From Escherichia coli (lineage in GTDB: Bacteria > Pseudomonadota > Gammaproteobacteria > Enterobacterales > Enterobacteriaceae), in NCBI RefSeq assembly GCF_030013595.1, contig NZ_CP122768.1: DNA of 64,000 nt. One strand, 5' to 3'. The notes beneath the pieces are model-generated. The model had not been told where the DNA came from. It made no database searches and saw only the letters and a program-made list of their open reading frames with translations. Shown here piece by piece: positions 2,159-13,111 of this stretch. Positions within the stretch are counted from its first letter, which is position 1. Each line of letters starts with the position of its first letter. The translations under genes and the position numbers were made by a program.

Positions 2159-2386
2159 ATGCTTAAAGCTGACGCAATTACTTTTTTTGGCAGCAAAACA
2201 AAGCTTGCCAATGCCGCAGGAGTGAGACTGGCAAGTGTTGCTGCTTGGGGGATACTGGTTCCTGAAGGTCGCGCGATGCGTCTACAGGAGGCATCTGGCG
2301 GGGAGCTTCAGTATGATCCCAAAGTTTATGACGAATATCGTAAGACGAAGCGGGCGGGGCGGTTGAACAATGAAAATCACTCCTGA
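2159..2386 (+). CDS. dicC: Cro-like regulator DicC
   Basis: ATG 6 nt after AGGAGG; 75 aa (MLKADAITFFGSKTKLANAAGVRLASVAAWG...); divergent from dicA. Confidence 0.7.
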   Translation: MLKADAITFFGSKTKLANAAGVRLASVAAWGILVPEGRAMRLQEASGGELQYDPKVYDEYRKTKRAGRLNNENHS

Positions 2387-2891
2387 ACAGGCTCGTGAGG
2401 CTCTGGATGCCTGGATATGTCGACCAGGAATGACACAGGAGCAGGCGACGATATTAATCACTGAAGCATTCTGGGCTTTGAAAGAGCGCCCGAACATCGA
2501 TGTTCAGCGTGTCACAGATGAAGGTGGCGCGGTTGATCAGCGAGCGCTTGGCGTTAATCGAGTGAAGATATTCGAACGCTGGAAGGCTATCGACACTAGG
2601 GATAAGCGTGAAAAGTTCACGGCGCTAGTGCCTGCAATTATGGAGGCTATCCGGATTAATGATTTCAGGTTGTATCGTGAAATTAGTGACGGAAAAAGCA
2701 TCACGTACATGATCGCCGGGTTAAACAAAGAATATGGCGATGTGGTGGAGTCCGGACTGCTTTTTGCTGATCCTGCCGTAGTGGATCGTGAAACTGACGA
2801 ACTTATAGAAAAAGCAATTGCTTTCAAACTTGCGTATCGACTGCAATACCAACAAAAAGCTGGATGGAATTATGAGCCTTCTTTTTGCTGA
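2370..2891 (+). CDS. YdaT-like prophage regulatory protein (CII-position protein)
   Basis: 173-aa ORF directly after the cro-like gene, overlapping its stop; resembles the YdaT family from memory. Confidence 0.55.
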   Translation: MKITPEQAREALDAWICRPGMTQEQATILITEAFWALKERPNIDVQRVTDEGGAVDQRALGVNRVKIFERWKAIDTRDKREKFTALVPAIMEAIRINDFRLYREISDGKSITYMIAGLNKEYGDVVESGLLFADPAVVDRETDELIEKAIAFKLAYRLQYQQKAGWNYEPSFC

Positions 2892-3837
2892 ACGCCCACT
2901 GGTTATAAACACACAGCTTGCGATGAAGATTGGCTTAAATGAAGCCATTGTGTTGCAGCAGTTGCATTACTGGTTGAGAGATACCAATTCCGGCATGGAA
3001 TGTGATGGTGTTCGCTGGATTTACAACACAACGGAACAATGGCTGGAACAGTTCCCATTCTGGCCAGAGTCAACGTTAAAGCGCGCGTTTGCAAGTCTGA
3101 AAACGCTGGGGCTTTTGCGTTGTGAAAAGCTCAATAAATCAAAGCGCGATATGACCAATTTCTACACGATCAACTATGGGAGCGAGCTTTTAGATGGTGG
3201 CAAATTGAACGAATCCATCGGTTCAAAATGCGCCGCTCCATCAGGTCAAAATGACACGATGGAAGAGGTCAAAATGAAACGCTCCATTGGTTCAAAACGA
3301 CCCAATGTCATCGGGTCAAAATGGCCTGATGATCTTACAGAGAATACAACAGAGATTACTACAGAGAATAAAAACACTTTTCGTCCGGAAGCTTCGCAAC
3401 CGGACCCGCAGACCGCTGAACAGGATTTTTTAACCCGGAACCCCGACGCGGTTGTGTTTAGTGCGAAAAAACGCCAGTGGGGTAGCAGGGAGGATTTGGC
3501 GTGTGCGCAGTGGATTTGGGGGCGGATCGTGAACCTTTACGAACAGGCTGCCAGCGACGATGGAGAGATCATGCGACCAAAAGAGCCTAACTGGACAGCC
3601 TGGGCCAATGACGTGCGCACAATGCGGATGCTGGATGGCAGAAGCCACAGACAAATTTGCGAAATGTTTGGTCGGGTACAGCGAGATCCATTCTGGGTAA
3701 AAAACATCATGAGCCCGTCAAAACTCCGCGAAAAATGGGACGAACTGGTCATCCGCTTGGGACGTTCACCTGTACAGCGTTGTGTGAATCATATTTCTGA
3801 ACCGGATACAGAAATTCCGCCTGGTTTCAGGGGATAA
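2872..3837 (+). CDS. Replication initiation protein, lambda O-like
   Basis: Position after cro/cII-like genes; contains iteron-like DNA repeats internally (translated as repeated IGSK motifs), as in lambda O/ori; start at MSLLFAERP. Confidence 0.65.
   Translation: MSLLFAERPLVINTQLAMKIGLNEAIVLQQLHYWLRDTNSGMECDGVRWIYNTTEQWLEQFPFWPESTLKRAFASLKTLGLLRCEKLNKSKRDMTNFYTINYGSELLDGGKLNESIGSKCAAPSGQNDTMEEVKMKRSIGSKRPNVIGSKWPDDLTENTTEITTENKNTFRPEASQPDPQTAEQDFLTRNPDAVVFSAKKRQWGSREDLACAQWIWGRIVNLYEQAASDDGEIMRPKEPNWTAWANDVRTMRMLDGRSHRQICEMFGRVQRDPFWVKNIMSPSKLREKWDELVIRLGRSPVQRCVNHISEPDTEIPPGFRG
3219..3324 (+). repeat. Putative replication origin iterons (about five copies of GGTCAAAATG-like repeat)
   Basis: cGGTTCAAAATG 3219..3230, GGTCAAAATG 3244..3253 and 3267..3276, GGTTCAAAACG 3289..3299, GGGTCAAAATGG 3314..3324, inside the O-like gene. 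Confidence 0.6.
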
Positions 3838-3877
3838 GTGTTGATTTCAGGTCATGAGGTAATTTTAAGGAGGACTT

Positions 3878-4273
3878 GTGGCAAAAGTTTTTACACAGGA
3901 AGAGCGGGAAAAAATTAAAGAGCAGGTGGTCGAACTTGTGCGCCAGAGCGGTCGCGAGACATTACGACAGTTGGAAGCTAAAACAGGTGCGACAAGATAT
4001 CTGATGAGCATTCTTGCCAGAGAGCTGGTTGCCAGTGGTTATGTATACAACTCCGGCTACGGGTTATTCCCGTCTGAACAGGCACGAAAGGACTGGCAAA
4101 ATGCCCGCAAAAAACTCTCTAGGGCGAAGGTGAAGAAACCCGCTGTGGTTGATCCGGACCTTATCTGGTCACTACCTGATGGAGAAATACGTCGCTACGA
4201 CAGTCGTCTAAACATAATCTGTCGCGAGTGCCGGAAGAGCGAAGTTATGCAGCGCATATTGTCGTTTTATTAG
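3878..4273 (+). CDS. Hypothetical 131-aa protein at the position where a helicase loader (P/DnaC) would be expected
   Basis: GTG start 4 nt after TAAGGAGG; no Walker motif seen; function unknown. Confidence 0.5.
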   Translation: MAKVFTQEEREKIKEQVVELVRQSGRETLRQLEAKTGATRYLMSILARELVASGYVYNSGYGLFPSEQARKDWQNARKKLSRAKVKKPAVVDPDLIWSLPDGEIRRYDSRLNIICRECRKSEVMQRILSFY

Positions 4274-4615
4274 GGAAATGTTCGGTATCTATTTAAGTGA
4301 CGAGATTAAAGTGCATTAGTTAAGATGTAAATTGACATTTTCATGGCATAGGGTAGAGGTAGCGTGGTTGTCTGCTTTGTGCCATGAACTGATGTCGCTT
4401 GTGTGCGTGGCAATTAGTGTATAACGGATATCATCAGACTCCAGCAGTAGCATTGCTTGAGCATACTAACATATGAAATCTTTAGTTAACGTAAGATAAA
4501 TTAGATTTAGTTTTTTTGAGTATGAGCTCATAAATAATCAAAAAAACTTGATACGCCATATGACTTTGATTTATTTTGGGAAAATATAAAGGTAATGTAA
4601 TGTAAAGAGGAAAAT

Positions 4616-6103
4616 GTGGACATTAGAGACTGGCTACCAGAATTTCAAGTTTCAGCAGAAACAGATCGGGACTTACAGACCTATTTTTTTAAGCTACCGG
4701 CGATAAAGGATATTATTGAAAGTAGGGCTTGGTTGGTTCTTGGAAGAAAAGGTACTGGTAAAACAGCCATTTATGAACACCTTAGAAGAGGAAAACCAGC
4801 CAATCTCAACGGGTTTTACTCAGTATGTCTAAATTTTAGTGACTATCCATGGCCAGCCCATCAACTTTACAAGGATGCAATGGCTGGAGAACTTTCCGCT
4901 TATCAAAAAAGTTGGATGTATCTTTTTTATATTAAGGCATTATCTAAACTTATTGAAATAAAAAATGATGCTGGAGAGACTTTAAACAAAGATCTAACGT
5001 GGGCACATAATTATATCAAAACTATCTTTGGTAGTCCCGACCCAACTCTTAGGGAGGTTTTGTTTTCAAAAATAACCAGATTAAAAACCATAAAAGGGCC
5101 CAGTGCTGGTCTTAATGAAGTATCATTGGACGCAGGTGAAATTTCGTTAGAGGAAGTTGCTGAGAATGCTCAGCTAAAGCAAAAGCTAAGAGCTAATGCT
5201 TTCACATTGCTTACGTATTTTGAAAAAATTTTTAAAGATAACATTGGTAATGAAAAAATAATTATCGCCCTTGACCAATTAGACGAAAACTGGCTAGAGG
5301 GGCAAATTGAAGAATATAGTAAGGTTTTAATAAATCTGCTAAATGTCTGTAGAAACATAGCATCTGATGAACGCCTCAATGATAAATTAAAAGTCATTCC
5401 CTTCCTACGAACGGATATTTATCATTCTTTGAAATTCAATGATAAAAACAAATTATTGCAAGATAGTGCTATCATAATCTCATGGAATGAAAATAATCTA
5501 AACGATATGTATTATGAGAGGATAAAGAAATACAAACCTAATGATCTCATATTAGATGACGAAAAGGACAGATCTGGGAAAGTATTTGAGGTTTCATTCG
5601 TTAGGCAGGGGACTCCTCCATTTAAATATATATGTCGCCGTTCTTTCTTTAGGCCTAGGGATATTATTGTCTACTTCAACAAAATTAGGGCATGTCATAA
5701 AAATAATGTCTCAGGTCTTTACACTTCCAATGAGCTTTATGAAGCTGACCGTGAAGCATCTATAAGTGTGTACAATGAGGTGATTGATGAATGGTCCAAC
5801 CAATTCCCTGAAATTGAGAACTTACTAACTGTTCTTCAAACTATCCAAGTAGAAACATTCGATTTTAATGATTTCTCCGAGAAGTGCCGTAATGAATTTG
5901 CAGGTATTTCTGATGGGGTGATACGTCAATATATCAACTTCCTGTTTGATAACTCACTTATCGGACAAAAAAAACAAGGTAGATGGGAATACGTAAGTAG
6001 TTTGCCTAACTTAAAAATTAATCTACAAAATGAGTTTAGGACACATCATGCTTTAAAATACAGGTTGCATTTAATAGAAAGCAGACCGAGCCAAAATATT
6101 TAG
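4616..6103 (+). CDS. AAA+/STAND-like P-loop NTPase (495 aa), AT-rich moron; candidate defence gene
   Basis: GTG start 6 nt after AAGAGG; Walker A GRKGTGKT (4742..4765); Walker B-like IIIALDQLDE (5258..5287); AT-rich codon usage unlike flanking phage genes. Confidence 0.8.
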   Translation: MDIRDWLPEFQVSAETDRDLQTYFFKLPAIKDIIESRAWLVLGRKGTGKTAIYEHLRRGKPANLNGFYSVCLNFSDYPWPAHQLYKDAMAGELSAYQKSWMYLFYIKALSKLIEIKNDAGETLNKDLTWAHNYIKTIFGSPDPTLREVLFSKITRLKTIKGPSAGLNEVSLDAGEISLEEVAENAQLKQKLRANAFTLLTYFEKIFKDNIGNEKIIIALDQLDENWLEGQIEEYSKVLINLLNVCRNIASDERLNDKLKVIPFLRTDIYHSLKFNDKNKLLQDSAIIISWNENNLNDMYYERIKKYKPNDLILDDEKDRSGKVFEVSFVRQGTPPFKYICRRSFFRPRDIIVYFNKIRACHKNNVSGLYTSNELYEADREASISVYNEVIDEWSNQFPEIENLLTVLQTIQVETFDFNDFSEKCRNEFAGISDGVIRQYINFLFDNSLIGQKKQGRWEYVSSLPNLKINLQNEFRTHHALKYRLHLIESRPSQNI

Positions 6104-6266
6104 CTTACATCCATCTCCATTAAGAAATCTTGCTATTGTTCTTATGGATCGTCTTTCTGACTGATTTCATATTGGCGAGGTAAAGGTAGTTAAGTAGAAT
6201 GGCTGCGGGTGCTTGAGGCTATCTGCCTCGGGCATGAACACCAAAGGCAGATAGAGAAAAGCCCCA

Positions 6267-8141
6267 GTTAACATTACGCGTCCTGCAAGACGCTTAACAT
6301 TAATCTGAGGCCAATTTCATGCTAGACACATGTAGGTTAGCCTCTTACGTGCCGAAAGGCAAGGAGAAGCAGGCTAGTGTTAACACCAAGCTGTAATGTC
6401 CCCTTTGAACCATTCTAAAATGTCCCCAGACAATTCTCTGGGGGATTTTTCATGATCAAAGAGACTGTTACGATGAGTCATAAGGAACTCCACCGACTTC
6501 AGATTATTCAGGAGTCAATTAATCGACATATTACTCAGGAACAAGCTGCGGCACGCATTGGCATTTCTATTCGGCAGGTTAAACGTCTGGTGCAACGGTA
6601 TAGAAATGAAGGGCCTTCTGGTCTGGTTTCCCACCGACGTGGAAAGCGTCCTAATAATTCCTTTTCTACTGAATTCAGAGCAACAGTAATTTCACTCCTC
6701 AAAGGCCGTTACGCTGATTTTGGACCTACGTTTGCGTGCGAAAAATTGCGCGAGATACACGGTTTATCTTTATCCGTTGAAACTCTCAGAAAGTGGATGA
6801 TAGAAGAGGGGTTATGGCGTGAACGCCGTCGTAAAATTGCCCGTATATATCAACGCCGCATGCGACGACCATCTTACGGTGAACTGATCCAGATTGATGG
6901 CTCACCTCATGACTGGTTTGAAAATCGAGGCCCCAGATGTACACTGATCGTTTTCATTGATGATGCCACCAGTGCGTTGATGGCGTTGCGTTTTGTGCCT
7001 GCTGAAACAACCCGGGCTTACATGGAAACCCTCCGGGGTTACCTTAATGATCATGGCGTACCGCTCGCTCTCTACTCTGATAGACACAGTATATTCAGGG
7101 TAAATAACCCAGAGCGGGAAGGTGAGCTGACCCAGTTCACTCGTGCGATAAAGACACTGGGCATCGAGCCAATCCATGCCAACAGCCCGCAGGCAAAAGG
7201 GCGGGTAGAGCGCGCCAATCAGACACTACAGGACAGGCTGGTCAAAGAAATGCGGCTTCAGAATATCAGTGATATTGAAACAGCAAATGCATGGTTGCCG
7301 ACCTTTATTGAAGCCTATAACAACCGGTTCGCTACGTCGCCTCGTACTACTGATAATGCTCATCTTGATGAGCACCATTCTGAAGAGGAACTGGGTTATA
7401 TCTTCAGCCTACAGGCGAAGCGCGTTCTGTCTAAAAATCTCACTTTCCAGTACAAAAGCAGTGCGTTTCAGGTACGCAGTGAGGGCCGGGGATATCGACT
7501 TAGGCATTCGGTTGTTACTGTATGCGAGAACTTTGACGGTGAAATTAACGTTCTGTATGACGGGAAAGCGCTGGGCTGGGAAAAGTATGTTGATGGCCCG
7601 GAGCCTATACCACTGGATGATGAAAAGAGTGTCCATGAACGAGTGGATAATGCCCGTATTGATTTACGCTCAAAATACTATGTTAAACCTAAAGCTGACC
7701 ATCCCTGGCTTACGCGCCGAACGCAAAGTCATCAGCAAGTTAAGCCCCCGAAGTTACCTAAAAAGAAGCCTGATCCCGATAAAAAAGATTGAAACCAAGA
7801 TCGATTCGGTTGAGTGCATATCCATTCATAGGGTAGATTCTTAAGTCGCGTTTCTGGTGTTCATTTTCGGGTGGTTTGTTACTTGTTTTACCGGGGATAT
7901 GCCAGAAACGCGCTGAGTCAGTCTGGGCGGTGCGCGTAATGAGGCGTTATGGTAAATAGCCTATGCTAATGTCCGCTAAGAGCAAGAAGCGGAAGTTGGC
8001 AGTTTTGTGGACTGTCCCCACAAAAGTGACTACAGAAATAGTTGCAATTCATAATTGATCATGGGTTGTCAGTTAAACTCGTGGCGATTTAAATAGACTA
8101 ATTGGGAGTGCGTCCATTACTTATATCTTGTAATGTTAACT
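6267..8141. mobile_element. Insertion sequence (single-ORF DDE/rve transposase; IS481 or ISNCY-like); boundaries approximate
   Basis: 446-aa transposase ORF; 12-bp inverted match AGTTAACATTAC at 6267..6278 and 8130..8141 proposed as termini; no clear target-site duplication. Confidence 0.45.
6452..7792 (+). CDS. Transposase with N-terminal HTH and integrase-core (DDE) domain
   Basis: 446 aa; HTH (AARIGISIRQVKRLV) and rve-like core (..IQIDGSPHDWF.. ..LYSDRHSIF..); basic lysine-rich C-terminus. Confidence 0.85.
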   Translation: MIKETVTMSHKELHRLQIIQESINRHITQEQAAARIGISIRQVKRLVQRYRNEGPSGLVSHRRGKRPNNSFSTEFRATVISLLKGRYADFGPTFACEKLREIHGLSLSVETLRKWMIEEGLWRERRRKIARIYQRRMRRPSYGELIQIDGSPHDWFENRGPRCTLIVFIDDATSALMALRFVPAETTRAYMETLRGYLNDHGVPLALYSDRHSIFRVNNPEREGELTQFTRAIKTLGIEPIHANSPQAKGRVERANQTLQDRLVKEMRLQNISDIETANAWLPTFIEAYNNRFATSPRTTDNAHLDEHHSEEELGYIFSLQAKRVLSKNLTFQYKSSAFQVRSEGRGYRLRHSVVTVCENFDGEINVLYDGKALGWEKYVDGPEPIPLDDEKSVHERVDNARIDLRSKYYVKPKADHPWLTRRTQSHQQVKPPKLPKKKPDPDKKD

Positions 8142-8228
8142 ATCAGAAATGATACAAAGATAATATGTCTTTAAAGAAAAGGCTGATGGCGAAAAGTGGC
8201 CCGATGAGGGCCACAATACGGCTGTCAC

Positions 8229-8561
8229 TTAGACGTAAATATCAATGGTGCCAGCGGTATTTGTATCGTCTTTTTTCTCTTCTTTTTTATCAGGCTGAAC
8301 TGTCGCGTCTTCATTCTTTTTCTCTGCCTGCTGCCTTAACAACTGCTCCAGTTGAGCCCAGAGGCTTTCAATTTGCTTCTGTACCAATGCAGCCATTTCT
8401 TTTTTCTGCTGTGTCGTCATCCCCTCTTCCGATGAGATTTTCCCAAGCTTTTCAGTCAGCACCTGAATTTGTCTTGTGATTTTGGCTATTTCTGATGTTC
8501 CTTCCGGGGCGGAGTTGTTTGAAATAACGGTTGAGGTATTTCCCTGAATTGTGACAGACAT
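8229..8561 (-). CDS. flxA: FlxA (sigma-28-dependent prophage protein)
   Basis: 110-aa product MSVTIQGNTSTVISNNSAPEGTSEIAKITRQIQVLTEKL... matches remembered FlxA. Confidence 0.8.
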   Translation of the reverse strand: MSVTIQGNTSTVISNNSAPEGTSEIAKITRQIQVLTEKLGKISSEEGMTTQQKKEMAALVQKQIESLWAQLEQLLRQQAEKKNEDATVQPDKKEEKKDDTNTAGTIDIYV

Positions 8562-8584
8562 AGATTTCTCCTTTTAAAAAAGCA

Positions 8585-8611
8585 CTATCGGCATGCACAA
8601 AAAAATCTTTA
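8585..8611 (-). promoter_or_regulatory. Sigma-28 (FliA) promoter of flxA
   Basis: Reverse strand TAAAGATT (8604..8611), 11-nt spacer, GCCGATAG (8585..8592), close to consensus TAAAGTTT-N11-GCCGATAA, just upstream of flxA. Confidence 0.6.
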
Positions 8612-8763
8612 ATCGTATTTCTTGTGTCATTAATTGTTTGATGTTCAGATTGTTTTCCTCGCGGGCTGGCGCGCCTCAGAAAGTAAAGCTTGTTGACAGG
8701 GGTAAACGTTCGGCAATAATTTTCTGCCGCATGCGGGTGTTGCATAAAACGTGTTACGTTCCT

Positions 8764-9069
8764 TTATCGACAGGTCAGGTCACCGCTCACCCGCCGACGA
8801 GAAAGCAACACTGACATGCTAAAGCAAAAAATAGATGAATAAGTTGAGTTGTGCATATGTAGCCTGACCGTCACAAAGTATATGGTGTCTGTACCAGTAA
8901 GATGATGGCCGGACTCTTTAAAAACGAGCTGACCTGCACAATACAGGATGGACTTAGCAATGGCTGCTCCTGGCAGAAAGCGGACAGTGATCACCGTTCT
9001 TACGACTACTTTCTGACTTCCTTCGTGACTTGCCCTAAGCATGTTGTAGTGCGATACTTGTAATGACAT
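8764..9069 (-). CDS. YdfV-like hypothetical ORF (101 aa), doubtful
   Basis: ORF of the length remembered for ydfV between flxA and relB; low-complexity product, overlaps relB operator. Confidence 0.25.
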   Translation of the reverse strand: MSLQVSHYNMLRASHEGSQKVVVRTVITVRFLPGAAIAKSILYCAGQLVFKESGHHLTGTDTIYFVTVRLHMHNSTYSSIFCFSMSVLLSRRRVSGDLTCR

Positions 9070-9082
9070 TTGTAATTACAAG
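9057..9082. promoter_or_regulatory. relBE operator/promoter palindrome (relO)
   Basis: CTTGTAATGACATTTGTAATTACAAG, inverted repeat just upstream of relB. Confidence 0.6.
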
Positions 9083-9093
9083 AGGTGTAAGAC

Positions 9094-9333
9094 ATGGGTA
9101 GCATTAACCTGCGTATTGACGATGAACTTAAAGCGCGTTCTTACGCCGCGCTTGAAAAAATGGGTGTAACTCCTTCTGAAGCGCTTCGTCTCATGCTCGA
9201 GTATATCGCTGACAATGAACGCTTGCCGTTCAAACAGACACTCCTGAGTGATGAAGATGCTGAACTTGTGGAGATAGTGAAAGAACGGCTTCGTAATCCT
9301 AAGCCAGTACGTGTGACGCTGGATGAACTCTGA
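9094..9333 (+). CDS. relB: Antitoxin RelB
   Basis: 79 aa MGSINLRIDDELKARSYAALEKMGVTPSEALRLMLEYIADNERLPF... matches RelB. Confidence 0.9.
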   Translation: MGSINLRIDDELKARSYAALEKMGVTPSEALRLMLEYIADNERLPFKQTLLSDEDAELVEIVKERLRNPKPVRVTLDEL

Positions 9334-9620
9334 TGGCGTATTTTCTGGATTTTGACGAGCGGGCACTAAAGGAATGGCGAAAGCTGGGCTCGACGGTACG
9401 TGAACAGTTGAAAAAGAAGCTGGTTGAAGTAATTGAGTCACCCCGGATTGAAGCAAACAAGCTCCGTGGTATGCCTGATTGTTACAAGATTAAGCTCCGG
9501 TCTTCAGGCTATCGCCTTGTATACCAGGTTATAGACGAGAAAGTTGTCGTTTTCGTGATTTCTGTTGGGAAAAGAGAACGCTCGGAAGTATATAGCGAGG
9601 CGGTCAAACGCATTCTCTGA
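9333..9620 (+). CDS. relE: mRNA interferase toxin RelE
   Basis: 95 aa MAYFLDFDERALKEWRKLGSTVREQLKKKL... matches RelE; start overlaps relB stop. Confidence 0.9.
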   Translation: MAYFLDFDERALKEWRKLGSTVREQLKKKLVEVIESPRIEANKLRGMPDCYKIKLRSSGYRLVYQVIDEKVVVFVISVGKRERSEVYSEAVKRIL

Positions 9621-9691
9621 ACCAAAGCATGACATCTCTGTTTCGCACCGAAGGTGACACTTCTGCTTTGCGTTGACAGGAGAAGCAGGCT

Positions 9692-9847
9692 ATGAAGCAG
9701 CAAAAGGCGATGTTAATCGCCCTGATCGTCATCTGTTTAACCGTCATAGTGACGGCACTGGTAACGAGGAAAGACCTCTGCGAGGTACGAATCCGAACCG
9801 GCCAGACGGAGGTCGCTGTCTTCACAGCTTACGAACCTGAGGAGTAA
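9692..9847 (+). CDS. hokD: Hok-family type I toxin HokD (RelF), 51 aa
   Basis: Translation MKQQKAMLIALIVICLTVIVTALVTRKDLCEVRIRTGQTEVAVFTAYEPEE; below ORF-track size cut-off, found by reading. Confidence 0.8.
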   Translation: MKQQKAMLIALIVICLTVIVTALVTRKDLCEVRIRTGQTEVAVFTAYEPEE

Positions 9848-9915
9848 GAGACCCGGCGAGGGAGAAATCCCTCGCCACCTCTGATGTGTCAGGCATCCTC
9901 AACGCACCCGCACTT

Positions 9916-9945
9916 AACCCGCTTCGGCGGGTTTTTGTTTTTATT
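9916..9945 (+). terminator. Rho-independent terminator after relBE-hokD
   Basis: AACCCGC-TTCG-GCGGGTT hairpin followed by a T-run. Confidence 0.6.
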
Positions 9946-10063
9946 TTCAACGCGTTTGAAGTTCTGGACGGTGCCGGAATAGAATCAAAAATACTTAAGT
10001 AGCGCGCAGGGATAAGAGGGATGGTCCCTTAAAGGGGAGAGCTAATTATCCGGAAGGATTCTG

Positions 10064-10315
10064 ATGATGAACATCGAAGAACTGCGTAAAATTTTTTGTG
10101 AAGATGGCCTCTATGCTGTGTGCGTTGAAAATGGAAATCTTGTTAGTCATTACCGCATTATGTGTTTGCGAAAGAATGGGGCTGCGTTAATTAATTTTGT
10201 GGATGGTCGAGTGACAGACAGATTTATCTTGCGCGAAGGTGAGTTTGTCACTTCATTACAGGCACTGAAAGAGATCGGAATAAAAGCAGGCTTTTCAGCT
10301 TTTGCAGAAGAATAA
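10064..10315 (+). CDS. rem: Rem-like small prophage protein (83 aa)
   Basis: 83-aa ORF MMNIEELRKIFCEDGLYAVCVENG... at the position of rem between hokD and ydfU. Confidence 0.55.
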   Translation: MMNIEELRKIFCEDGLYAVCVENGNLVSHYRIMCLRKNGAALINFVDGRVTDRFILREGEFVTSLQALKEIGIKAGFSAFAEE

Positions 10316-10381
10316 ACTCATCTACAATCTTGCGCGGGGCTGAACTCCCGCTGAGTAACACCGTGCCACCGGAGAAAACCG

Positions 10382-10660
10382 ATGGCACGCAACGTAAAAT
10401 ATTACAATTCTGATAATTCGCCCGTTCTTGCCTGCACGCACGAGCGGTATTCTCACGCATTCAAGTCTGAATGGTTCCAACACCCTCCATGCACTGAAGA
10501 GCAGGCTGAATGGATAATTCAGTGTTACCGCAGGCGCGGATACGAGGTTAAGAAAGCCCTTAGTCTCGACTACCGTCACTGGATAATCTCAGTCAGATTG
10601 CCTTACTCCGAACGCCCACCACGTGCGTCCCGCACTTTCCAGCAACGGATCTGGAGGTAA
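10382..10660 (+). CDS. Hypothetical 92-aa protein immediately upstream of ydfU
   Basis: ORF ends 1 nt before the proposed ydfU GTG start; Cys/His-rich N-terminus. Confidence 0.4.
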   Translation: MARNVKYYNSDNSPVLACTHERYSHAFKSEWFQHPPCTEEQAEWIIQCYRRRGYEVKKALSLDYRHWIISVRLPYSERPPRASRTFQQRIWR

Positions 10661-10661
10661 C

Positions 10662-11711
10662 GTGCGGGTATTACTTAGACCTGTTCTGGTGCCTGAGCTT
10701 GGGCTGGTGGTCCTTAAGCCGGGCCGTGAATCCATACAGATATTTCATAATCCTCGAGTGCTGGTGGAACCGGAACCAAAAAGCATGCGTAATCTGCCAT
10801 CCGGAGTCGTTCCTGCCGTTGGCCAGCCGCTGGCGGAAGACAAAACATTGCTGCCGTTTTTTAGTAACGAACGGGTGATTCGTGCTGCTGGCGGCGTTGG
10901 CTCATTGTCTGACTGGCTATTACGTCATGTTACATCCTGCCAGTGGCCTAATGGCGATTACCATCACACTGAAACAGTCATTCACCGTTATGGTACCGGC
11001 GCAATGGTGTTGTGTTGGCACTGCGACAACCAACTGCGTGACCAGACATCGGAATCACTGGAGCTGCTTGCTCAACAAAATCTGACAGCATGGGTGATTG
11101 ACGTCATCCGTCACGCAATAAGCGGTACGCAGGAGCGGGAATTATCTTTGGCTGAATTATCCTGGTGGGCGGTCTGCAATCAGGTGGTGGATGCACTACC
11201 TGAGGCTGTATCGCGTCGTTCGCTGGGATTACCAGCGGAAAAAATCTGCTCGGTGTACCGCGAAAGCGACATCGTACCGGGAGAGCAGACCGCCACCAGC
11301 ATATTGAAACAACGCACAAAAAATCTTGCACCGTTGCCTTACGCCCACCAGCAACAAAAACTACCACAGGAAAAGACGGTGGTAAGCATCACCGTTGATC
11401 CAGAGTCTCCGGAATCTTTCATGAAGCTGCCTAAACGTCGCCGCTGGGTTAAGGAGAAATACACACGTTGGGTTAAGACACAGCCGTGTGCTTGCTGCGG
11501 TATGCCAGCCGACGATCCGCATCATCTGATTGGTCACGGGCAGGGCGGAATGGGAACAAAAGCACATGATCTCTTTGTGTTGCCTTTGTGCAGAAAGCAT
11601 CACAACGAGCTGCATACGGATACAGTGGCATTTGAAGAGAAGTATGGCTCCCAACTGGAGCTGATATTTCGTTTTATCGATCGCGCGCTGGCAATTGGCG
11701 TACTGGCGTAA
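10662..11711 (+). CDS. ydfU: YdfU-like DUF968 protein with C-terminal HNH-like nuclease motif
   Basis: GTG after GGAGG gives 349 aa; motif CACCG..DDPHHLIGHGQGG..LCRKHHNELH at 11487..11615. Confidence 0.65.
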   Translation: MRVLLRPVLVPELGLVVLKPGRESIQIFHNPRVLVEPEPKSMRNLPSGVVPAVGQPLAEDKTLLPFFSNERVIRAAGGVGSLSDWLLRHVTSCQWPNGDYHHTETVIHRYGTGAMVLCWHCDNQLRDQTSESLELLAQQNLTAWVIDVIRHAISGTQERELSLAELSWWAVCNQVVDALPEAVSRRSLGLPAEKICSVYRESDIVPGEQTATSILKQRTKNLAPLPYAHQQQKLPQEKTVVSITVDPESPESFMKLPKRRRWVKEKYTRWVKTQPCACCGMPADDPHHLIGHGQGGMGTKAHDLFVLPLCRKHHNELHTDTVAFEEKYGSQLELIFRFIDRALAIGVLA

Positions 11712-11724
11712 GTGGAGAACGAGC

Positions 11725-12477
11725 ATGAACCTTGAAGCCTTACCAAAATATTACTCCCCAAAATCTCCAAAATTGAGCGATGACGCTCCAGCGACAGGCA
11801 CCGGTTGTTTAACAATTACGGATGTAATGGCAGCGCAGGGGATGGTGCAGTCGAAAGCACCACTTGGGTTGGCCTTATTTCTGGCAAAAGTTGGTGTTCA
11901 GGACCCTCAGTTTGCGATTGAAGGCCTGCTAAATTACGCGATGGCACTGGATAACCCGACATTGAACAAATTGAGTGAAGAAATCCGGTTACAGATTATT
12001 CCTTACCTCGTGAGTTTTGCCTTTGCTGATTACTCCAGGTCTGCGGCAAGTAAGGCTCGCTGTGAGCATTGTTCAGGTACGGGATTTTATAATGTATTGC
12101 GCGAAGTGGTGAAACACTACAGACGCGGGGAATCTGTAATCAAGGAAGAATGGGTGAAGGAACTATGTCAGCATTGCCATGGTAAGGGCGAAGCCAGCAC
12201 AGCGTGCAGAGGGTGTAAGGGTAAAGGGATTGTTCTGGATGAAAAAAGAACCCGGTTTCATGGCGTACCGGTATATAAGATTTGTGGGCGTTGTAATGGA
12301 AACCGGTTTAGTCGTTTACCGACCACGCTGGCACGACGTCATGTCCAGAAGCTGGTACCAGACCTGACCGATTATCAGTGGTATAAGGGGTATGCGGACG
12401 TCATTGGTAAACTGGTAACAAAGTGCTGGCAGGAAGAAGCATACGCGGAAGCGCAATTGAGGAAGGTGACGAGATAA
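11725..12477 (+). CDS. quuQ: Late-gene antiterminator Q
   Basis: 250 aa from MNLEALPKYY with GGAG upstream; Cys-rich zinc-binding region (CEHCSGTGF..CQHCHGKG..CRGCKGKG); followed by promoter and terminator. Confidence 0.75.
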   Translation: MNLEALPKYYSPKSPKLSDDAPATGTGCLTITDVMAAQGMVQSKAPLGLALFLAKVGVQDPQFAIEGLLNYAMALDNPTLNKLSEEIRLQIIPYLVSFAFADYSRSAASKARCEHCSGTGFYNVLREVVKHYRRGESVIKEEWVKELCQHCHGKGEASTACRGCKGKGIVLDEKRTRFHGVPVYKICGRCNGNRFSRLPTTLARRHVQKLVPDLTDYQWYKGYADVIGKLVTKCWQEEAYAEAQLRKVTR

Positions 12478-12508
12478 ATGATTTTTGCTGAAGATGGCGA
12501 CATGATGT

Positions 12509-12538
12509 TTGCATTTTTCAAAAAATATGGATAAAATT
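12509..12538 (+). promoter_or_regulatory. Candidate late promoter (PR'-like)
   Basis: TTGCAT (12509..12514), 17-bp spacer, TAAAAT (12532..12537), about 35 bp after the Q stop. Confidence 0.4.
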
Positions 12539-12582
12539 TTTTCAACGATGGGCTTTGTATACCCGACGTTAAGAAAAAGTAG

Positions 12583-12610
12583 AAAACCCGCTGATGAGCG
12601 GGTTTTGTGC
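12583..12610 (+). terminator. Rho-independent terminator (tR'-like) downstream of late promoter
   Basis: CCCGCT-GATG-AGCGGG hairpin followed by TTTTGTGCTTT. Confidence 0.6.
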
Positions 12611-12898
12611 TTTAAATGGGGCAATGGTAATGTTGAATCTCATCCCGGGACTCATGTCTGTTAACTTATTATTTAGCTGGTGACTTGGTTATTTGCCTGA
12701 TGTTTAAAATGTTTTCTTCCAGTACAATGTCCCTAAACACAATGAGTCTGCTTATTATATTATTAGCAGAGCTATTACGGCCAAAGTACAGCATAAGCTT
12801 TTAAAGCCAATCAACCAGTCATCAAGACAGACGGGGTTATTCATAAAAACTCTCCATGTGTGATCCGATGGGGCCTGAAATTAAAGCTTTAATATAGC

Positions 12899-13111
12899 TC
12901 ATGAAAGGTAAACATTGGCAGCTGAAGGGCCACGCAGACCATTTATCCGGCAAAATTCCACGCGTAATCCGGTGGTAATTTCTTCTGCATCGCGGAGATT
13001 GAGCGCTGAAACATGAAGCTGGACATCGATACGACCATCGGATGGGGTGATAAGACCCTTGCCGCTTTTGCCGTCAAAGGTTTTGACAATTCCTGTCATT
13101 TTACGGGACAA
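12899..13111 (-). CDS. cspF: Cold shock protein CspF
   Basis: 70 aa [45 protein letters not shown]..., CspA-family fold. Confidence 0.8.

Follow-up and report, generated by a model that had tools for sequence, protein, structure and literature searches.

Insertion sequences (IS) of the IS1202 family have terminal repeats of ~22–29 bp, generate target duplications in classes of 5–6, 15–17 and 24–29 bp, and in their simple format span 1.3–2 kb with a single open reading frame (ORF). Their transposases are marked by two extra conserved aspartates between catalytic D1 and D2 and by a glutamine at E+7 (Siguier et al. 2022, bioRxiv 10.1101/2022.12.17.520857). ISEsa1 is listed as a subgroup of its own, 1609 bp long, with terminal inverted repeats that agree at 15/22 positions, a transposase of 439 aa and no target duplication (Harmer and Hall 2023, PMC10132070). 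The ISAjo2/ISAba32 subgroup inserts 5–6 bp from XerCD (dif/pdif) sites and duplicates 5–6 bp, while the transporter IS (tIS; ISKpn21, ISKpn65, ISRel10) enclose one passenger ORF of unknown function between an IS-type transposase and its ends. Outside the family, Lima-Mendez et al. in 2020 reportedly described type II toxin-antitoxin (TA) pairs as a recurrent part of Tn3-family transposons. Here we describe an ISEsa1-type element in a 64,000-nucleotide stretch of Escherichia coli DNA (assembly GCF_030013595.1, contig NZ_CP122768.1; "the window"), where it interrupts the hok toxin locus of a Qin/mEp460-type lambdoid prophage. Positions 6378–9678 very probably form one 3301-bp transposon whose insertion deleted nothing, and its relatives appear to seek out the translation starts of type I toxin genes.

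The transposase gene (6452–7792; all features lie on the plus strand unless stated otherwise) encodes 446 aa, or 439 aa from Met8, and assigns the element to the ISEsa1 type of the IS1202 family. A first-pass annotation of the window had described a single protein with a helix-turn-helix (HTH) and an rve-type domain, and this is borne out by matches to Pfam HTH_28, HTH_29, HTH_32 and rve_3. The protein matches NCBIfam NF033594 (transpos_ISNCY_2) over residues 17–377 at 463.8 bits (cutoff 250) and carries the IS1202-family signature as QID150GS, FID171D172AT, YSD211RHS and VE253RANQTLQ260, the catalytic and signature residues having been placed by motif position, without structural alignment. 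The element shares with ISEsa1 the transposase name given by the Prokaryotic Genome Annotation Pipeline (PGAP; 'IS1202-like element ISEsa1 family'), the 439-aa length, the HTH plus DDE layout and imperfect terminal repeats of ~25 bp. Whereas ISEsa1 as listed is a 1609-bp unit that lacks a duplication, the unit here measures 3.3 kb (up to 12.8 kb in relatives), is bounded by a duplication and holds passengers. Its 28-bp repeats and 15-bp duplication fit the IS1202 family, but its 3301 bp and four passenger genes depart from the simple format, and it can be classed as a transporter IS or unit transposon with an IS1202-family core. With ISAjo2/ISAba32 it shares oriented, position-specific insertion beside a short site common on plasmids, as well as tandem hits with one duplication copy between them; it differs from that subgroup in its candidate site (GGCAA-N15 at hok and ldr starts), in the length of its duplication and in its transposase, the two being ~41–47% identical. 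In the tIS a transposase and ends likewise surround passengers, but in place of their one ORF the element here has a TA operon and a swappable slot (flxA/ydfV, Ni/Cr, As, or cation diffusion facilitator, CDF). As in the Tn3-family transposons, the TA pair is a conserved part of the transposon; however, transposase and mechanism are unrelated, and here the pair sits at the outward-reading right end, where it would replace a disrupted type I toxin system.

The left terminal inverted repeat (IRL, TGTTAACACCAAGCTGTAATGTCCCCTT, 6378–6405) and the right one (IRR, 9651–9678, ending in ...GCGTTGACA) agree at 21 of 28 positions in inverted orientation exactly at the junctions, and at 16 of 22 over the first 22 bp. 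The IRL is unique in the window, and its end recurs at the junction of every other copy. A second subterminal motif, ...AAAATGTCCCC, follows 24 bp further inward as a direct repeat; each end has two such motifs of the type (A/G)TGTC(C/A)CC, 24 bp apart. Next to the ends lie the two copies of the target-site duplication, GGAGAAGCAGGCTAG at 6363–6377 on the left and GGAGAAGCAGGCTAT at 9679–9693 on the right, which match at 14/15 positions; in a neighbouring register the 15-mer AGGAGAAGCAGGCTA is repeated perfectly at 6362–6376 and 9678–9692. In most related prophage copies the duplication ends in T on both sides. The transposon occurs once in the window. Its transposase is followed by a conserved 205-bp tail, then by flxA and ydfV, both encoded on the opposite strand, and finally by relB–relE, which read outward via the right end.

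An empty site is available in phage mEp460, which matches the window at 6128–6376 and 9678–10200. Because these two matches overlap by 15 bp in the phage, the insert is flanked by a duplication, and removal of 6378–9692 regenerates the mEp460 sequence with a single copy of the 15-mer. When the window, mEp460 and two plasmid copies are aligned, the shared sequence linked to the transposase opens at TGTTAACACC (6378), directly past the hok ribosome-binding site. The 3.3-kb unit is also found, 98.9–99.7% identical, in an IncF Enterobacter plasmid (duplication (A)GGAGAAGAAGGCCA), in a pnd-type hok of an IncI Salmonella plasmid (duplication (A)TGGAGGGGCTATGAT) and in a viral contig at a non-hok site (L015); both plasmid copies, which lie in hok, are bordered by their own locus-specific duplication. 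Perfect duplications of 15–16 bp are present in loci L006, L008, L009 and L069. A 10.2-kb relative at a non-hok site, with a transposase that is 81% identical, is flanked by the perfect 15-bp duplication CATTAAGCTGCAAAT, from which the tips are fixed as TGTTAA...GTTGACA and the length of the duplication as 15 bp. The ends, the duplication, the empty site, the movement to other replicons and the common insertion position are thus read directly from the alignments, and the structural conclusions on the element, resting on several independent comparisons, are in our judgement highly likely to be correct.

At least nine different hok loci contain, at one and the same position, copies that are ~99% identical, some of them with Ni/Cr or CDF-transporter cargo. 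In all hok-associated copies the joint falls on the identical nucleotide between the hok ribosome-binding site and its ATG, and the transposase is always oriented as hok. Flanks from IMG/VR, GTDB genomes and plasmids were pooled with those from a metagenome scanned for a degenerate left-end pattern, which gave 43 distinct left-flank classes: 19 hok leaders, ~5 hok-derived or tandem, 18 unrelated and one ldr. Insertion preference for hok is plain. Relatives with 86% and 80% identical transposases are likewise found in hok loci, and a 76% relative in Salmonella enterica (CP019410, L061 7927–9374) is a simple 1448-bp IS with a 15–17-bp duplication, CACAAGGCGGCTATATG. This IS splits ldr/rdlD, so that the rdlD antisense gene (Rfam, 75 bits) is parted from the Ldr toxin coding sequence at the junction of ribosome-binding site and ATG. 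The ldr leader just upstream of it resembles hok leaders, and a sub-threshold sok match ends exactly at the joint.

Two metagenome contigs (L109, L117) hold elements head to tail, in the order right end, a single 15-bp GGAGAA(G/A)AAGGCTAT and the left end of the next element; the same hok site was therefore hit repeatedly. In a further class (L085, L081, L128, L132) it is a different sequence, ...GTGTGAACTTACACA, that adjoins the 15-mer. In three plasmid lineages (L005, L009, L065) the IS3-family ISKpn8 lies in the hok leader ~100 bp to the left of the transposon's left end.

Directly 5' of the duplicated 15 bp is a candidate target-recognition motif, GGCAA (6358–6362). All hok targets have (G/T)GCAA at this position, and the ldr leader has TTGCA there. 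In 8 of the 18 independent sites outside hok, the last base of GCAA lies 16–18 bp from the joint, and in 5 of these at exactly 16 (binomial P ~1e-11). The information content of the non-hok flanks in fixed columns gave no signal, because the motif shifts by 0–2 bp; counting offsets revealed it. The transpososome would read GGCAA, probably together with further context, and would cut just 3' of it with a 15-bp stagger. Since hok leaders and one ldr leader conserve the motif, they could serve as a safe landing pad on plasmids and prophages, where the element's own TA module would take the place of the disrupted toxin system. We consider recognition of GGCAA-N15, and the swap-in of the element's own addiction module, somewhat more likely than not. 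Neither of the two IS1202-family papers (PMC10132070; bioRxiv 10.1101/2022.12.17.520857) reports targeting of hok or of type I toxins, and neither hok targeting nor a description of this transposon was found in the literature searched, which was limited in coverage.

The same distribution could arise with no real target choice, if one old hok insertion had spread among hok loci by homologous recombination or had merely been retained by selection. The hok loci are homologous, disruption of a toxin gene is harmless, and one locus (L049) joins a pnd-type left flank to a hokD-type right flank, showing that copies do recombine. However, the elements are 98–99% identical while the hok leaders that flank them at the targeted loci are only ~70% alike, and each duplication matches its own locus on both sides. 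At least nine hok loci and the unrelated ldr locus share the exact nucleotide of the joint, GGCAA stands at equal distance in unrelated sites, and the tandem arrays record repeated hits. Spread by recombination or selection is therefore improbable as the explanation, and insertion guided by the target remains the preferred one.

Internally, the transposon consists of two conserved cores around a variable segment. The tail of the left core (7793–7997) follows the transposase gene and includes a conserved GCTAATGTCCGCTAAGAGC motif and a stem-loop formed by the 11-bp inverted repeat (7847–7857/7902–7912), which the first-pass annotation had correctly placed after the transposase stop. In the 94% and 86% relatives the stem of this repeat is preserved, its changes being one-sided. 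Where the left core meets the cargo (7965–8022), the left-end subterminal motif recurs in direct rather than inverted orientation (GCTAATGTCCGC and GGACTGTCCCCAC); the GCTAATGTCCGC copy is conserved in the 94% and 86% relatives. These boundary copies may be what remains of a former end, or the transposase may bind there inside the element. The variable cargo segment (7998–8966, minus strand) here holds flxA (8229–8561) and most of ydfV (8764–9069). The right core (8967–9650) comprises the relBE promoter/operator palindrome (9057–9082), relB (9094–9333) and relE (9333–9620); it is at least 98% identical across all cargo variants, and relBE, beside the right end, is the constant passenger. The ydfV frame spans the 8966/8967 boundary, with its first 34 codons in the conserved segment upstream of relBE and the remainder in swappable cargo. 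As the frame straddles the two segments, its status as a real gene is doubtful.

Other copies carry other cargo. In a 12,842-bp variant from a Phytobacter IncF plasmid (L008; duplication GGAGAAGTCAGCTAT) the variable segment is replaced by ~10.5 kb of ncr/chr metal-resistance genes (ncrYCBA, a methyltransferase, chrBA and hupE). A 6,092-bp variant on IncHI2 plasmids (L009; duplication GGAGAAGAAGGCCAT) has cytochrome b and a CDF transporter together with a transposase that is 94% identical, and a further variant (L051) has another 2.4-kb middle. Distant relatives carry other TA pairs, namely tacAT beside the right end, vapBC, and a ParE-family pair that adjoins the transposase in an element with an ars operon. 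A copy with 2260 bp between its ends (L020) was considered as a minimal element of transposase and relBE, but it is only an internal deletion of the transposase. In a 62%-identical Vibrio relative and a 61% metagenomic relative, a clear right end or duplication was not found. Many IMG/VR copies are 3273 bp long, ~27 bp shorter than the copy in the window. Phage PhiR42_1 (PV340562, L068 8266–9579) has the whole transposon, with its transposase annotated as two shorter ORFs; there the transposase is probably disrupted.

The sole mobile unit might instead be a simple 1.6-kb ISEsa1, running from 6378 to ~7986–7997, with flxA, ydfV and relBE as neighbouring DNA outside it. The published ISEsa1 length of 1609 bp corresponds to 6378–7986, all cargo variants diverge from the window at 7987–7997, a conserved motif marks the left-core boundary, and one relative does exist as a simple IS. 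Yet a search for an inverted-repeat partner of the left end at 7900–8200 returned trivial matches only, no IRL-like sequence in inverted orientation is present near 7900–8060, and no duplication adjoins 7997. The segment flxA–ydfV–relBE is also missing from the empty site, and a locus-matching 15-bp duplication flanks the whole unit in five loci, which represent three cargos and always the same relE-proximal end. For the 1609-bp definition no duplication was found in the literature either. A mobile unit confined to the left core is thus unlikely, slightly more so than spread by recombination, and the 3.3-kb transposon is the better description. We suspect, as there is no inverted repeat at 7986, that the database entry for ISEsa1 covers no more than the left core, which would account for its absent duplication.

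The transposon stands between the two halves of a hok locus. The 5' half (6128–6377) runs from a promoter-like site (TTGGCG-17-TAGAAT at 6172–6200) through the hok mRNA leader and the antisense sok region to the hok ribosome-binding site. It is 98.4% identical to the hok leader of mEp460, which is free of the insertion, and Rfam sok (RF01794) matches 6207–6373 over the full model at 111.2 bits (gathering score 59). Transposase-free phages, among them mEp460, HannyBb, Evi, Tritos and 933W, match 6128–6376 in a locus annotated mok/hok/sok. The 3' half is the hokD (relF) coding sequence (9692–9847; hokD in PGAP), 99.4% identical to the hok region of mEp460. The two halves, contiguous in mEp460, are separated by 3.3 kb in the window. 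The element inserted just ahead of the hok start codon, past the ribosome-binding site, and duplicated 15 bp of its target; this severed hokD from its own promoter, leader and sok antisense gene, left behind at 6128–6377, and placed it behind the relBE promoter of the transposon. hokD retains a ribosome-binding site, now 71 bp past relE, because the right copy of the duplication supplies one together with the AT of its ATG. Just 5' of the transposase start is a terminator-like hairpin with a T-run (TCCCCAGACAATTCTCTGGGGG ATTTTTC, 6423–6450), which would be expected to block read-through from the hok promoter.

This arrangement has a counterpart in E. coli K-12, where relBE and relF/hokD are co-transcribed from the relBE promoter, as determined experimentally (PMC3598666). 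The relBEF operon of the K-12 Qin prophage has the same relB–relE–hokD order that the transposon created here, and in K-12 the left half of the element is deleted. K-12 MG1655 matches the window at 2066–2649 and at 7608–13000, the latter at 99.2% identity; a 4958-bp deletion corresponding to window 2650–7607 joins the YdaT/cII-like gene (ydfX, truncated) to the last 49 transposase codons (ydfW). The deletion took the replication genes, the hok leader, the left end and most of the transposase, and flxA, ydfV, relBE and hokD remain. The vehicle is invisible in K-12 because the hok leader, the left end and most of the transposase went with these 5 kb. That relBE integrated into hokD was stated by Ramisetty and Santhosh 2016 as quoted in PMC6379469; the quotation itself mentions neither a transposon nor ends or a duplication. 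The left junction occurs in 690 of 5426 complete E. coli genomes, and the junction of relE, right end and hokD in 1164.

Taken together, we propose that the ISEsa1 clade consists of homing transposons for type I toxin genes, which would read GGCAA-N15, insert exactly where translation of the toxin begins, free the toxin from its antisense control and bring in a type II TA pair (relBE, tacAT, parDE-like or vapBC) with swappable resistance cargo. The textbook relBE locus of E. coli would be due to the transposon, as would much of the dissemination of relBE on enterobacterial plasmids and prophages, and the lack of a target duplication in ISEsa1 would come from a truncated database definition. 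We give this reading a probability of about 0.55. Several points weigh against the 3.3-kb transposon and its target choice as described above. The complete 3301-bp copy at a non-hok site (L015 1345–4645, IMG/VR 2912051188_000002) has a junction repeat of 6–7 bp (ACGCCTT) and not of 15 bp. In the window, the left copy of the duplication has G6377 instead of T as its last base, and A9678 can be assigned to the IRR or to the duplication, so that 15 and 16 bp are indistinguishable. The match between IRL and IRR is modest by itself, as 6/500 shuffles attain its score. The listed ISEsa1 length, with no duplication, is exactly that of the left core; perhaps a shorter unit moves as well, or perhaps the entry in the database is incomplete. 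About 40% of the site classes lie outside type I toxin loci, and the targeting of GGCAA is a statistical inference.

The first-pass annotation had also raised the possibility that the IS or the moron insertion deleted part of the prophage's replication module. Its starting observation holds: no P or DnaC-like gene occurs between the O-like gene and Q, either in Pfam, PHROGs and NCBIfam searches of the three large ORFs (O-like, DUF977 and ATPase) or in the PGAP annotation of the identical strain. The O-like initiator (2872–3837, or 2818–3837 from a TTG) matches phrog_391 'replication initiation O-like' at full length (E 4.4e-92), and DnaD-like helicase-loader PHROGs match its N- and C-terminal parts. 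It is followed by a DUF977/Ren-like gene (3878–4273; PHROG 'Ren-like exclusion protein'). Both genes of this module are intact, and the transposon leaves them unaffected. Compared with a lambda-type O/P module, an O-type initiator is present and a phage helicase loader or helicase beside it is not.

A loss of a P/DnaC-type loader through either insertion fits the fact that no homologue of P, DnaC or DnaB lies between the O-like gene and Q. Against it, mEp460 provides an exact empty site, the insertion, bordered by a duplication, is clean, and the same module without a loader is present in mEp460_ev081, described as a functional temperate phage (bioRxiv 10.1101/2023.04.14.536235). Window 2255–4395 is collinear with and 96.5% identical to mEp460_ev081, which has the cII/YdaT-like, O-like and DUF977 genes and lacks P or DnaC, and phage PhiR42_1 has the same O and LygF pair together with the transposon. 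The O-like protein, moreover, has the DnaD-like loader matches and a DnaT-like tail. A deletion of this kind is very unlikely; an O-like gene with DUF977 and no P or DnaC is the native and self-sufficient state of the module in this phage group rather than a lambda module that has suffered damage.

The suggestion that the 131-aa protein (DUF977) or the NTPase is the helicase loader finds no support either, as neither has a loader match in Pfam, PHROGs or NCBIfam. The NTPase gene lies in a slot between DUF977 and the hok leader (4396–6127) that is occupied by this ATPase in the window, by a 449-aa gene in mEp460 and by a methyltransferase with small ORFs in PhiR42_1. The ATPase can therefore not be a conserved loader, and because the slot varies between phages, it is to be regarded as a moron. 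It is a Sll1717-family P-loop protein of 495 aa (NCBIfam, 250 bits) with a weak PADLOC match to PDC-M28C and is possibly a defence gene; PADLOC found nothing in flxA, ydfV or DUF977. The last 21 residues of the O-like protein (VQRCVNHISEPDTEIPPGFRG, window 3775–3837) match the extreme C-terminus of E. coli DnaT at 15/21 positions (PDB 2ru8, 6aep, 9zbt; E 0.004–0.01). The initiator may mimic the DnaT tail and so recruit host primosome or DnaB–DnaC factors directly; the paper examined gives no role for the extreme C-terminus of DnaT.

The element itself had been foreseen in part. A mobile element with one HTH and DDE (rve) transposase is indeed present, but it is a 3.3-kb transposon with cargo and not the 1.9-kb IS that had been drawn between two arms of a 12-bp inverted match, AGTTAACATTAC. 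This match exists, once per orientation in the window, with its right arm at 8130–8141 as given and its left arm at 6266–6277, not 6267–6278. The estimate that its chance probability is below 0.01 was sound, since an inverted match of at least 12 bp appeared in 9/2000 shuffles of the transposase's non-coding flanks. As element ends the arms do not serve: the true left end is 6378 and not 6267, and the paired end across the target duplication is 9678 and not 8141. Although a perfect match on both sides of the transposase is that rare among shuffled flanks, an IS delimited by 6266–6277 and 8130–8141 is already refuted by the comparative data, since the left arm is part of the hok/sok leader inside the full-length sok match and occurs in mEp460, where no IS is found, the right arm accompanies the flxA cargo in other copies (L005, L006 and L015, plasmid copies included) that do not have the left arm, both arms are missing from copies with the same transposase and ends but ncr or CDF cargo (L008, L009), no target duplication lies at the arms, and the sequence common to independent copies begins at 6378.

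Window 6100–8300 is 100% identical to strain HCP5S3_I2, in which PGAP gives the order dicB, a DicA-like repressor, dicC, a YdaT-family gene, a hypothetical 321-aa protein, DUF977, the Sll1717-family P-loop ATPase, the 'IS1202-like element ISEsa1 family transposase', ydfW, flxA, ydfV, relB, relE, hokD, rem, ydfU and Q (ydfT). In this strain (L001 9374–10693, equal to window 6473–7792) PGAP divides the intact transposase ORF into a pseudogene, 'partial, missing C-terminus', and ydfW, while plasmid records annotate the same ORF undivided. The split looks like an annotation artefact derived from the K-12 name of the last 49 codons, and the transposon in the window is intact and probably active.

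These findings correct the anatomy of an element that pipelines label only as 'ISEsa1 family transposase', often as a fragment with 'ydfW', and they remove the suspicion of a damaged replication module in the prophage. They provide a concrete vehicle and an insertion mechanism for relBE, which is among the best-studied chromosomal toxin-antitoxin systems, and account for the odd relB–relE–hokD operon and the 'rearranged' hokD locus of K-12. The same chassis moves nickel, chromate, arsenic and cation-efflux genes among plasmids of Enterobacter, Klebsiella, Salmonella, Phytobacter and E. coli. For the IS1202 family they point to a new target specificity, in which the starts of hok and ldr would join XerCD sites as landing pads on plasmids and phages.

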